Below are positions 1,866 to 54,348 of a stretch of DNA of 64,000 nt, in pieces; the first letter of the stretch is position 1, and every line of letters begins with the position of its first letter. The stretch lies in NCBI RefSeq assembly GCF_003019035.1, contig NZ_CP027447.1; one strand, 5' to 3'. This DNA comes from Escherichia coli. Its GTDB lineage: Bacteria > Pseudomonadota > Gammaproteobacteria > Enterobacterales > Enterobacteriaceae. A program made the position numbers and the translations under genes. A model generated the notes under the pieces. The model had not been told where the DNA came from. It saw only the letters and a program-made list of their open reading frames with translations, and made no database searches.

Positions 1866-1987
1866 GCAGGTGAATGCAACGTCAAGCGATGGGCGTTGCG
1901 CTCCATATTGTCTTACTTCCTTTTTTGAATTACTGCATAGCACAATTGATTCGTACGACGCCGACTTTGATGAGTCGGCTTTTTTTT
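1866..1987 (+). ncRNA. fnrS: FnrS small RNA (FNR-activated, Hfq-dependent)
   Basis: Sequence GCAGGUGAAUGCAACGUCAAGCGAUGGGCGUUGCGCUCC... ending in GC-rich hairpin GCCGACUUUGAUGAGUCGGC plus U-run; matches recalled FnrS and its zntB-dbpA position. Confidence 0.85.
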
Positions 1988-6554: not shown

Positions 6555-6781
6555 TGAATAAATCCTTTAGTTATTTTATTTGCCTTTTATCCCCATTTCG
6601 GGGAGTGAAAACATCCTAAAGGAGAAGTTCAGTTAGCCGATAAATATCATTTGTTACGCCTTAAGTAAAACCTTAATCAAATAATTCCTCTGAAATGATA
6701 ATAAGTCTGGTGAATGTATCGAAGATAATACATACAAAATAAAAATTATACTTTTAATTTGCTATACGTTATTCTTCGCGG

Positions 6782-6890
6782 GTTATATGCCTTTATTGTC
6801 ACAGATTTTATTTTCTGTTGGGCCATTGCATTGCCACTGATTTTCCAACATATAAAAAGACAAGCCCGAACAGTCGTCCGGGCTTTTTTT
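6782..6890 (+). ncRNA. micC: MicC small RNA (represses ompC)
   Basis: GUUAUAUGCCUUUAUUGUCACAGAUUUUAUUUUCUGUUGGGCCAUUGC... ending in hairpin CCCGAACAGUCGUCCGGGC plus U8; matches recalled MicC and its ompN-ydbK position. Confidence 0.85.
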
Positions 6891-6919
6891 TAGAATTGGA
6901 TAATCCTTATCCAGAGCAT

Positions 6920-39708: not shown

Positions 39709-39772
39709 AAGAAAACGCCTGTACTAAAACCGACCCGCGGTACAGGCGAAGAGTACGGGCCTACATCGGAAG
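39709..39772 (-). ncRNA. rydC: RydC small RNA (about 64 nt)
   Basis: Minus strand reads CUUCCGAUGUAGGCCCGUACUCUUCGCCUGUACCGCGGGUCGGUUUUAGUACAGGCGUUUUCUU; matches recalled RydC and its position just downstream of cybB. Confidence 0.65.
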
Positions 39773-40187: not shown

Positions 40188-40395
<208 letters not shown>

Positions 40396-40669
40396 TCGTT
40401 GGCCTCGGTTGATAGAAATATCGGTCGGGGCCTTCGTCTTTCTGATTCCCGGTTAGCCTGAAAACAGAAAGTCTCAGGCACCCGTGAGCATCCTATGTGG
40501 TTTCCTTAGGGACGAAAATAATCACCTGACGAAATTGCGTGCTGTTTTCCAGAATTTTTCGTCATTCGGGTTAGCCGGTTTAGCCATTCGTTACTCTCTT
40601 CATTCCAATAGCATTAATTTTCTCTGCAATAATTGTTGTAAAAATGTGACGCAAAGAGGTTTTTGGTCA

Positions 40670-51400: not shown

Positions 51401-51427
51401 CGCGCCATCGTTAGATGGCGCTTTTTA
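51401..51427 (+). terminator. Rho-independent terminator after ydcL
   Basis: GCGCCATC-GTTA-GATGGCGC followed by TTTTT. Confidence 0.7.
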
Positions 51428-51689
51428 TCCGGTGCGCCGTAAAACCCCGTCCTTCAGGGCGGGGATATAAGGCGCGGTTTTGCACCTGACCAGGTGTTTG
51501 CTGTTGTTCAATGTATTGGCGGATGACGGATATTGGCGCACCTCCGCAGCTACTGGCAAAATAGCCAGGACTCCACAAAACGCCTTTGTAGTAATACCTG
51601 ACTGCAATATCTGGTCGATCTCGTCGCAGTAACCTACCCGATACGCCTTTGAGGCTGTTTACCAGACTGGATATCGCCAGTTTGGGAGG

Positions 51690-51917
51690 TTAGTTAATTA
51701 ACAAATGGACGTGATCTGGTTCGCCATCCATTTCAACCAGTTCAGCTTCAAAATCAGCACATACATTTGAAAAGTAAGTGCGTAGTTTTTCTGTCGCGTC
51801 ATGGTCAAAAATCTGGCGTCGGTATCTGGTGACAAAGACCAGATGAACATGCATCAGGAAAACACAATGCCTTCCACGCCGGATATCGGTTTCTTTTTTC
51901 ACAGACCAAAGTATCAT
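51690..51917 (-). pseudogene. insP: IS200-type HUH transposase TnpA, truncated to 75 aa
   Basis: MILWSVKKETDIRRGRHCVFLMHVHLVFVTRYRRQ... has the HxH (HVH) motif but stops at about half normal length, before where the catalytic Tyr normally lies. Confidence 0.7.
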
Positions 51918-51924
51918 TTGACCT

Positions 51925-53133
51925 GTGAAACGATTACAGGCATTTAAATTCCAGTTAAGACCAGGTGGTCAACAGGAGTGTGAAATGAGGCGCTTCGCAG
52001 GCGCATGTCGTTTCGTTTTCAATCGTGCTCTGGCACGTCAGAATGAGAATCATGAGGCCGGTAATAAATACATCCCTTACGGGAAAATGGCTTCCTGGCT
52101 GGTTGAGTGGAAAAATGCCACTGAAACGCAATGGCTTAAAGATTCTCCCTCACAGCCATTGCAACAGTCACTGAAAGACCTTGAGCGGGCTTACAAAAAC
52201 TTCTTCCGGAAGCGGGCTGCTTTTCCCCGATTCAAAAAGCGGGGACAGAATGATGCATTCCGCTACCCGCAGGGCGTTAAGCTCGATCAGGAAAACAGCC
52301 GTATTTTTCTGCCGAAACTGGGCTGGATGCGCTACCGGAATAGCCGTCAGGTCACGGGTGTTGTGAAAAATGTCACTGTCAGCCAGTCCTGCGGTAAGTG
52401 GTACATCAGTATTCAGACAGAAAGTGAAGTATCCACTCCGGCTCACCCTTCAGCATCAATGGTCGGGCTGGATGCTGGCGTGGCTAAACTCGCCACGCTG
52501 TCAGATGGCACAGTCTTTGAGCCTGTAAACAGTTTTCAGAAAAACCAGAAGACGCTGGCGAGACTTCAGCGACAGTTAAGCCGCAAGGTCAAATTCAGCA
52601 ACAACTGGCAGAAGCAGAAACGCAAAATACAGCGACTGCATTCCTGTATCGCAAATATCCGCAGGGACTACCTTCACAAAGTCACAACGGCCGTCAGCAA
52701 AAACCACGCAATGATAGTCATTGAGGATTTGAAGGTCAGCAACATGTCAAAGTCAGCAGCGGGTACGGTCAGCCAGCCGGGGCGCAATGTCCGGGCAAAA
52801 TCAGGTTTAAACCGTTCGATACTGGATCAGGGCTGGTATGAAATGCGCCGCCAGCTTGAGTACAAGCAGCTCTGGCGTGGCGGTCAGGTGCTTGCTGTTC
52901 CGCCAGCGTATACAAGCCAGCGTTGCGCGTACTGTGGTCATACAGCGAAAGAGAACCGCCTGTCACAAAGTAAATTCAGATGCCAGGTATGTGGATATAC
53001 AGCGAACGCCGATGTAAATGGCGCTCGTAACATTTTAGCGGCGGGGCACGCCGTTCTTGCCTGTGGAGAGATGGTGCAGTCAGGCCGCCCGTTGAAGCAG
53101 GAACCCACCGAAATGATTCAGGCGACAGCCTGA
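51925..53133 (+). CDS. insQ: TnpB (OrfB) of IS200/IS605 family, 402-aa frame from GTG
   Basis: ORF track [35 protein letters not shown]...; C-terminal zinc-finger CxxC...CxxC (CAYCGH...[18 protein letters not shown]). Confidence 0.88.
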
Positions 53134-53172
53134 ACGTAGCAGGGATCCACGTCCTTCAGGGCGTGGAGGATG

Positions 53173-54348
53173 TCAATATCGGTTTCTGTCAGCGATTAAA
53201 TTCAACACCACGTAACAAACGCCTCCGGCAATTAATCCCCAAAACGCAGAACCAATCCCGGCCAGCGTCAATCCACTTGCCGTTACCAGAAATGCCACCA
53301 CCGCCGCGTCGCGCTCACGCTCATTATGCAGCGCCTGATACAAACTGCCGCCAATGGTACTCAACAGCGCCAGACCTGCCAGCATCTGGATCCAACTTAC
53401 GGGCAGGGCAGCCATCATCCCGGTAATGGCACTACCAAACAGACCTGCGAGCAAATAGAAAATGCCTGCAACGGCAGCGGCCAGCCAACGTTGATCTTTA
53501 TCCGGATGCGCTTCCGGGCTTTGGCAAATAGCCGCGGTGATTGCCGCAATACCGACGGAATAAACGCCGAAAGGGGAAAAAACCAGTGCCAGCAATCCAG
53601 TAAATACAATTAATGGCGAAACAGGAGCCGAATATCCGGCGGCTTTCATTGCTGCGATACCCGGTGCGTTTTGCGATGCCATCGTCACCAGAAAAAGGGG
53701 GAGTGCAACGCTCAGGCTGTGAGCAAACGAAAAATCAGGGCTAATATAAGTGGGGAGAACGGGTTTAAAGACAACATCAGTTGTGACAACGTCACCTTGC
53801 GCGATAACGATCACGACCCCAATAATCATCGCGGCAATTACCGCATAGCGCGGCGCAACGGCCCTGGTTGCCAGCCATACCAGCAACATACTGCCACACA
53901 ACGTAAATTGACCATCCAGGCTCGCAAACGCCTGTAAACCAAAGCGTAATAAAATCCCGGCAAGCATTGCCGCCGCAAGCGAGTGCGGAATAATGCGCAT
54001 CAGACGAGCAAAGAGTCCCGTTATGCCGCAGAGGACTATTAACGCGTTGGTGACAATAAAAACGCCGATGGTTTCGTTAAGTGTTAGTCCCTGCAATCCG
54101 GTGACCAACAAAGCCGCGCCAGGCGTTGACCATGCGGTGAGAACAGGTACGCGATACCATAATGTCAGAGCCAGCGTACTGACGCCCATTACCAGCCCCA
54201 GCGCCGTCATCCAGCCAGAGATTTGTGCAGTGGTGGCTCCGGCGACAATCGCTGCTTGCCAGATTATTGCCGCTGAACTGGCGTAGCCAATTAATACCGC
54301 CAGAAACCCCGCCAGTAGCGTGGGTGGAGGAATAGAAAACAGACGCAT
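53173..54348 (-). CDS. ydcO: BenE-family transporter YdcO, 391 aa
   Basis: ORF track frame; start at MRLFSIPPPTLLAG with GAGGTG RBS; polytopic membrane protein. Confidence 0.85.
   Translation of the reverse strand: MRLFSIPPPTLLAGFLAVLIGYASSAAIIWQAAIVAGATTAQISGWMTALGLVMGVSTLALTLWYRVPVLTAWSTPGAALLVTGLQGLTLNETIGVFIVTNALIVLCGITGLFARLMRIIPHSLAAAMLAGILLRFGLQAFASLDGQFTLCGSMLLVWLATRAVAPRYAVIAAMIIGVVIVIAQGDVVTTDVVFKPVLPTYISPDFSFAHSLSVALPLFLVTMASQNAPGIAAMKAAGYSAPVSPLIVFTGLLALVFSPFGVYSVGIAAITAAICQSPEAHPDKDQRWLAAAVAGIFYLLAGLFGSAITGMMAALPVSWIQMLAGLALLSTIGGSLYQALHNERERDAAVVAFLVTASGLTLAGIGSAFWGLIAGGVCYVVLNLIADRNRY

Follow-up and report, generated by a model that had tools for sequence, protein, structure and literature searches.

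We analyzed a 64,000-nucleotide stretch of the Escherichia coli contig NZ_CP027447.1 (assembly GCF_003019035.1; the whole stretch is hereafter the window), in which an insertion sequence (IS) of the IS200/IS605 family lies between ydcL and ydcO. By sequence comparison, positions 51429–53176 of the window are a copy of IS609, an element that is already named and annotated at this same ydcL/ydcO site in K-12: the feature "insertion sequence:IS609" of K-12 MG1655 (NC_000913.3, 1503161..1504908) is colinear with it over 1748 bp at 99.1% identity, with 16 substitutions and no indels. The K-12 element holds the yncK pseudogene and insQ (b1432, "putative RNA-guided DNA endonuclease InsQ"), likewise between ydcL and ydcO. 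The segment 51380–53230 of the window is matched at 100% identity by at least 15 complete E. coli chromosomes, in which the RefSeq annotation gives ydcL, tnpA (pseudogene, "internal stop"), insQ ("RNA-guided endonuclease InsQ/TnpB family protein"), and ydcO, and each of these genomes has 1–4 IS609-related places. A preliminary description of the window, made from its letters and open reading frames, had assigned the element to the IS200/IS605 family, an assignment that the RefSeq and K-12 annotations and NCBIfam scores support, and had left unnamed what is the annotated IS609/insQ locus. As an object, the locus adds little, since the K-12 and RefSeq annotations already give the name and genes of the element and describe InsQ as RNA-guided. 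In the literature on insQ, ydcM, yncK, and ydcO, we found no study of the locus beyond annotation. We consider it likely, in a judgement that includes the certain identification of the element, that this is an IS609 copy with a dead tnpA whose TnpB and omega RNA (ωRNA, the guide RNA of TnpB) act in homing or retention of the element.

Element ends and target site

The near-identical palindromes CCCCGTCCTTCAGGGCGGGG (51445–51464) and CCACGTCCTTCAGGGCGTGG (53147–53166), both on the + strand, are the only two matches to their pattern in the 64 kb (0 expected, 100 shuffles), in agreement with self-BLAST, and both fold as single-stranded DNA hairpins with a TTCA loop. They are subterminal and on the same strand, 16 nt (left) and 10 nt (right) from the ends of the element, which has no terminal inverted repeats, an arrangement characteristic of the family. 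At the left end (51429–51485; DNA fold −13.8 kcal/mol, z = −3.4), an outer stem pairs 51434–38 with 51471–75. The hairpin stems covary in relatives, with compensatory changes in that of the right end. The two hairpins proposed in the preliminary description were thus recovered by pattern search, self-BLAST, and folding, and full-length copies, including one from O157:H7 with an intact tnpA, carry the same subterminal hairpins. The span of 51440–53170 that it had given to the element did not hold: the K-12 annotation, an empty-site allele, and more than 20 independent copies agree on ends at 51429 and 53176.

The empty-site allele was found by joining both flanks in silico and using the product as a query against complete genomes. 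In strain PapM-32-1 the site reads ...GATGGCGCTTTTTAT/TATCGGTTTCTGTC... (the slash marks the join), which is exactly the predicted seamless junction, with GCGCTTTTTAT/TATCGG at the join. The insertion is therefore seamless, 3' of TTAT and without target duplication (empty allele ...TTTAT/TATCGG...), and it sits where the ydcL terminator ends, 2 nt before the stop codon that ydcO originally had. Copies found elsewhere (on plasmids, in viral contigs, and at three further chromosomal sites) cease to resemble the window at 51429 and 53176. The terminal GGAGGATGTCAA is common to 23 of 24 distinct right junctions with unrelated flanks (the remaining junction ends in C), while TTAT (at 8 distinct sites) or TTAC (at 2–3) stands directly 5' of the left end in independent copies, and all four E. 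coli chromosomal insertion sites examined carry TTTAT. The four bases 5' of the left hairpin covary with the target, AAAA occurring with TTAT and AAAG with TTAC (copies L004 and L014), which fits the pairing rule of IS608 between the bases at this position and the target.

IS608 of Helicobacter pylori (TnpA structures 2a6m and 2vhg) resembles IS609 in its Y1 HUH transposase (E = 2e-19 to 2a6m), in its same-strand subterminal hairpins, in inserting 3' of a TTAC-like tetranucleotide without duplication, and in a right end that finishes in TCAA. Unlike IS608, IS609 has TTAT as its main target and a cleavage site 16 nt from the left hairpin, and its tnpA and tnpB are divergent, whereas those of IS608 point the same way. 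The coordinates of all features of the locus are collected in Table 1.

Table 1 Features of the IS609 locus, in window coordinates
Feature	Coordinates	Strand	Basis or remark
ydcL terminator hairpin	51402..51421	+	Terminator-like site; IS at the end of the T-run
Target tetranucleotide TTAT	51425..51428	+	Directly 5' of the left end; TnpA cleavage site and expected transposon-associated motif (TAM) of TnpB; T at 51424 gives TTTAT
IS609 element, 1748 bp	51429..53176	+ (top strand)	Colinear with K-12 IS609; similarity to copies elsewhere stops at exactly both positions
Left end	51429..51485	+	Hairpin 51445–51464 with an 8-bp stem including one G·T pair, loop TTCA; AAAA at 51441–51444, 5' of the hairpin foot
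tnpA pseudogene (yncK in K-12)	51486..51917	-	Translation; comparison with intact copies; RefSeq "internal stop" on a 100%-identical record
tnpB (insQ), 402 aa, GTG start	51925..53133	+	NF040570 match; ISDra2 alignment; RefSeq product name
Predicted ωRNA scaffold, ~147 nt	53030..53176 (5' limit approximate)	+	Shares 104 nt with the 3' end of tnpB and overlaps the right end; covariation
Right-end hairpin, loop TTCA	53147..53166	+	Element terminus 10 nt on, ending GGAGGATGTCAA (TCAA = 53173–53176)
ydcO (BenE-family transporter)	53173..54348	-	TGA stop (53173–75) and third base of the last Tyr codon (53176) from the IS right end
Predicted ωRNA guide segment TATCGGTTTCTGTCAG, ~16 nt	53177..53192	+	Flanking DNA; placed according to the TnpB/ωRNA paradigm

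A transposase pseudogene in an element with intact ends

The tnpA open reading frame (51917..51690, − strand) encodes 75 amino acids from the ATG at 51917 and ends at a TAA (51690–51692) in codon 76, which is TAT (Tyr) in K-12 and in intact copies. This TAT-to-TAA nonsense codon is located between the HUH motif (H69-V-H71, 51705–51713), which the 75-aa product retains, and the catalytic tyrosine. Past the TAA, 67 more codons follow in the same frame through ...SPGYFASSCGGAPISVIRQYIEQQQTPG, including the catalytic-Tyr region IRQYIEQQ (Tyr135 codon at 51513–51515). A second lesion turns the native TAG stop into CAG (51486–51488), with which the frame would continue through the left hairpin to 51411. 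With its stop repaired, TnpA reaches 146 bits against NF033573, where the cut-off is 55, and can be aligned over its full length to solved Y1 transposases from the PDB, IRQYIEQQ falling over IKKYIEEQ, as expected of a Y1 HUH transposase.

The truncated TnpA of the preliminary description is accurate for the product, which keeps the HVH motif and lacks the Tyr region, and inaccurate for the gene, which is nonsense-mutated and whose Tyr-encoding DNA is still in frame. Truncation by deletion was considered and rejected, as a single nonsense codon interrupts an otherwise complete frame. The divergent starts 7 bp apart that had been described were found as ATG 51917(−) and GTG 51925(+). With a TAA at codon 76 and the native stop lost, the copy lacks the intact TnpA reading frame of an autonomous element and, on its sequence, cannot make transposase.

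Compared with K-12 IS609, the window copy has the same site, ends, and gene order, and the lost tnpA stop codon is common to both. They differ in that the window tnpA is stopped at codon 76 (TAA; K-12 TAT) and the K-12 tnpA at codon 96, and in that the window left hairpin has G at 51449, like intact copies, where K-12 has A. The O157:H7 IS609 copy, inserted in a TetR-family gene (tnpA WP_000604943.1, "IS609 family transposase"), shows 98% identity, shares the termini, and has TTTAT as its target; unlike in the window copy, tnpA is intact there (143 aa, closed by its own TAG), and the copy is presumably autonomous. A further IS609 copy, beside yfeD in O78 strain 3, has a tnpA stopped exactly at the catalytic tyrosine codon (IRQ-stop-IEQQ) and a tnpB frameshifted by a 1-nt insertion.

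The ends of the window copy match those of IS609 copies at other sites, and there are IS609 copies whose tnpA is intact, among them copies from O157:H7 and from plasmids. Because of these two facts, mobilization in trans is possible: the window element would be non-autonomous and could be moved by TnpA supplied from elsewhere. The element had previously been described as probably immobile, which is right insofar as it has no TnpA of its own, although with its ends intact it is better called non-autonomous than strictly immobile. Among 758 new insertions in mutation-accumulation lines of K-12, none was of IS609 (PMC5009759).

An intact TnpB

The tnpB frame runs over 402 codons from the GTG at 51925 to a TGA at 53131–53133, and this start is supported by plasmid copies, which have ATG at the position of the window GTG. 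The product scores 380.6 bits on NF040570 (guided_TnpB), above the curated cut-off of 100, and its residues 3–372 align to ISDra2 TnpB (8bf8) with E = 2.7e-55. In this alignment, the RuvC residues D183 (52471–73), E267 (52723–25), and D363 (53011–13) correspond to D191, E278, and D361 of ISDra2, so that the D-E-D triad is conserved, and the CxxC...CxxC zinc finger is present at C334/C337 and C353/C356. Translation, profile score, and alignment therefore uphold the earlier view of an intact 402-aa TnpB with its zinc finger, and the proposed alignment check of the RuvC-like residues came out in its favor.

The TAM of ISDra2 is TTGAT. The ISDra2 TnpB-ωRNA complex (PDB 8bf8, 8exa, and 8h1j) has the same domain order, and its ωRNA likewise comes from the tnpB 3' end and the right end; unlike ISDra2, the window protein shows many mismatches and a 15-aa insertion after the catalytic Glu, and the expected IS609 TAM is TTAT. 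PMC12781874 describes the purification of an IS609 TnpB 85% identical to that of the window and its assay with a guide against a target that starts with TTAT, the TAM being marked only by color in the original table.

The TldR proteins are described as lacking RuvC catalytic residues. A reading of the window TnpB as a domesticated, nuclease-dead protein of this kind was rejected, all three RuvC catalytic residues being retained. With TldR (RNA-guided repressors; bioRxiv 10.1101/2023.11.30.569447), the likeness is that of a tnpB-family gene at a fixed chromosomal site without a working transposase; unlike in TldRs, the RuvC triad is intact in the window TnpB, and the transposon ends are preserved.

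A predicted ωRNA reading into ydcO

We aligned the last 220 nt of 20 non-identical relatives of the element and obtained a consensus structure of 53 pairs, 21 of which show compensatory changes, with 95.4% of cells paired. When pairing partners were slid, 36–45% of cells were paired, and 0 of 500 shuffles reached the observed values on any measure; the single-sequence fold of the region has z = −3.2. In the predicted structure, ACAUUU (~53030) pairs with GGAUGU, just short of the end, in a closing helix, which is accompanied by three internal stems, one of which spans the tnpB stop codon, and by the right-end hairpin. These computations predict a structured ωRNA at the tnpB 3' end and right end, as expected for a TnpB, and the covariation in the 3' region supports the earlier expectation of a guide RNA that would derive from there and read into ydcO.

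A covariance-model search had been suggested in the preliminary description as a check. No Rfam model matches within the element at gathering score, and Rfam 15 has no model that captures the IS609-type enterobacterial ωRNA at that level. At relaxed thresholds, the only matches on the + strand of 53006–53186 were HgcC (RF00062, 22.2 vs 50 bits, E = 0.04), sot0042 (RF02656, 17 vs 88), and RAGATH-18 (RF03064, 25.4 vs 44.9), three families that are sub-threshold here and are all tied to tnpB 3' ends or TnpB guide RNAs. According to PMC4615843, sotRNAs are transcripts overlapping tnpB 3' ends, HgcC has their right-end-like UUCA tetraloop, and tnpB 3'-overlapping transcripts are reported to be present in E. 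coli K12 RNA-seq as well, while RAGATH-18-derived RNAs guide IS607 TnpBs (PMC11061315).

The predicted guide, TATCGGTTTCTGTCAG, is found directly after TTAT in the empty-site allele, and the combination of TTAT and TATCGGTTTCTGTCAG exists only at an empty site. We propose that TnpB would bind an ωRNA made up of 53030–53176 and the ~16 nt of flanking sequence TATCGGTTTCTGTCAG. Were the element excised by TnpA from a different IS609 copy, the resealed TTAT plus TATCGGTTTCTGTCAG would be cut by TnpB-ωRNA, and repair from the sister chromosome would then restore the element. This proposal follows the model for IS200/IS605 TnpB that Karvelis (2021) and Meers (2023) reportedly established. A homing or retention role of this kind, which is known for TnpB, would explain why tnpB and the ωRNA are kept while tnpA decays.

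Distribution and allele variation

The joined-flank query was matched as one place, with at least 80% query cover, in 2136 complete genomes, mostly as a single uninterrupted piece; a few of these IS609-free sites have IS1 (IS1A) in ydcL instead. The place counts imply that ~3280 of 5416 complete E. coli genomes have the site split by IS609. A search for the 16-nt guide in 298 Gb of genome contigs returned mostly chance matches, as expected, and only two Escherichia records were informative. These represent two divergent Escherichia species with an empty site (...GCGCTTCGGAT/TATCGG... and ...GCGCTTCTTAT/TATCGG...), and the absence of IS609 is therefore the ancestral state.

Within the filled sites, we compared 15 alleles, that of the window and those of 14 further E. 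coli genomes. Every one of them has tnpA flagged as a pseudogene, and every one carries the stop-loss (TAG to CAG). Beyond the stop-loss, there are five disabling events in tnpA, namely E62stop, Y76stop, and L96stop, each in several strains, and two nested deletions; four of the five recur in several strains. The tnpB frame is intact in 13 of the 15 alleles; its two frameshifts (ATCC 43886 and L9) are each confined to one strain and could be recent or reflect assembly errors. The predicted ωRNA scaffold shows the lowest nucleotide diversity, with π = 0.006 vs 0.0135–0.0167 elsewhere. The lesion counts (5 in the 432 bp of tnpA vs 2 in the 1209 bp of tnpB) give a P of ~0.016 in a simple hand-calculated binomial that ignores phylogeny and possible assembly errors, which suggests, rather than proves, continued selection on tnpB and the ωRNA.

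Several observations limit this reading or weigh against the proposed retention role. The ratio of synonymous to nonsynonymous polymorphic codons across the 15 alleles is 18:29 for tnpB and 6:15 for tnpA, a contrast that is not significant, and pairwise dN/dS (nonsynonymous to synonymous rate) values for tnpB range from 0.14 to 0.63 on few substitutions. Two alleles, Ec-U9-1 and AR_0085, have no internal tnpA lesion and only the lost stop codon, from which the ancestral tnpA at the locus may have been functional for some time. In strain EC21, a 6-nt deletion (equivalent to window 53129–53134) takes away the TGA of tnpB together with one half of a covarying ωRNA stem, and a TAG 5 nt downstream keeps TnpB at 402 aa. 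Finally, a σ70 promoter scan found nothing on the + strand able to drive tnpB or the ωRNA.

Some of these points would be expected of an inert relic, that is, a decaying IS609 whose TnpB and ωRNA are no longer expressed or active and whose tnpB is open only for want of time. The missing promoter-like site, the stem deletion in EC21, and the frameshifted insQ alleles all speak for such a relic, as do the stillness of IS609 in the mutation-accumulation lines and a tnpB ratio only moderately below neutral. Against a relic stand the five disabling events in tnpA, four of them in several strains, when the longer tnpB has no shared one. TnpB also retains its catalytic triad and zinc finger, no segment varies less than the ωRNA scaffold, and PMC4615843 reports a tnpB 3'-overlapping transcript for K12. 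We therefore regard an inert relic as unlikely, and a homing or retention role of TnpB-ωRNA remains the reading that we prefer.

Separately, we observed an IS609 copy in yajI (DUF3251; e.g., strain 22AR0747) in 341 complete genomes, with the same Y76stop TAA as the window copy. Several of the yajI::IS609 genomes have an empty ydcL/ydcO site (strains 746, SCU-109, and CE2050). This pattern could have arisen because a TnpA-dead copy moved, through gene conversion, or from an old common ancestor.

The ydcO junction

The ydcO coding sequence has 1176 nt (ending RNRY, then stop) in filled genomes, and 1173 nt (ending RNR, then a TAA stop) in the empty-site genome. In the filled state, the flank ...AAC CGA TA is followed by T TGA from the element, where the empty state has ...AAC CGA TAA; the insertion has added one Tyr and a new stop codon to ydcO, which overlaps the last 4 nt of the element. 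The ydcO end had been described as lying 7 bp from the element, and the annotated coding sequence corrects this, the right end overlapping ydcO and supplying its stop codon.

The predicted guide TATCGGTTTCTGTCAG is perfectly complementary to the last 16 coding nt of the ydcO mRNA. This antisense relation alone is not evidence of function, because any insertion site would yield such a relation. It has nevertheless to be weighed with the possibility of a co-opted module, in which TnpB and/or the ωRNA would serve the host at a vertically inherited site, either through a guide or convergent transcription that modulates ydcO, or through TldR-like guided DNA binding by TnpB. That ~3280 of 5416 genomes have inherited the locus, with a dead tnpA and a retained tnpB, would agree with co-option, as would the antisense guide and the IS-supplied ydcO stop codon. 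However, the insertion is missing from this site in 2136 genomes, TnpB has kept its RuvC catalytic residues, unlike TldR, and the element ends are still transposon-like. Since the same anatomy and guide position are automatic at every insertion site, the ydcO overlap needs no special explanation. We consider co-option, in either variant, very unlikely.

The broader proposition that tnpB-ωRNA has outlived its own transposase under selection at ydcL/ydcO, as a self-retention module or through a host function tied to ydcO, also appears improbable to us. Our preferred reading stays with an IS609 copy whose TnpB-ωRNA probably acts in homing or retention.

Elsewhere in the window

Outside the element, Rfam models match the window at gathering level for FnrS, MicC, RydC, and the sok antitoxin RNA (a hok/sok-type locus), the coordinates being 1866–1983(+), 6779–6899(+), 39709–39772(−), and 40332–40483(−).

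Implications

What the window copy offers is a precise map of an IS609 element, comprising its ends, the TTAT target, the predicted ωRNA scaffold and guide, and the tnpA lesions, along with a ydcO gene that ends inside the element. If the proposed self-retention is true, cutting of the empty site after excision in trans would shape the filled/empty polymorphism across E. coli. The natural contrast at this site, with ~3280 filled and 2136 IS609-free genomes, tnpA dead in all sampled alleles and tnpB mostly intact, could be used to test in the wild whether TnpB prevents transposon loss.

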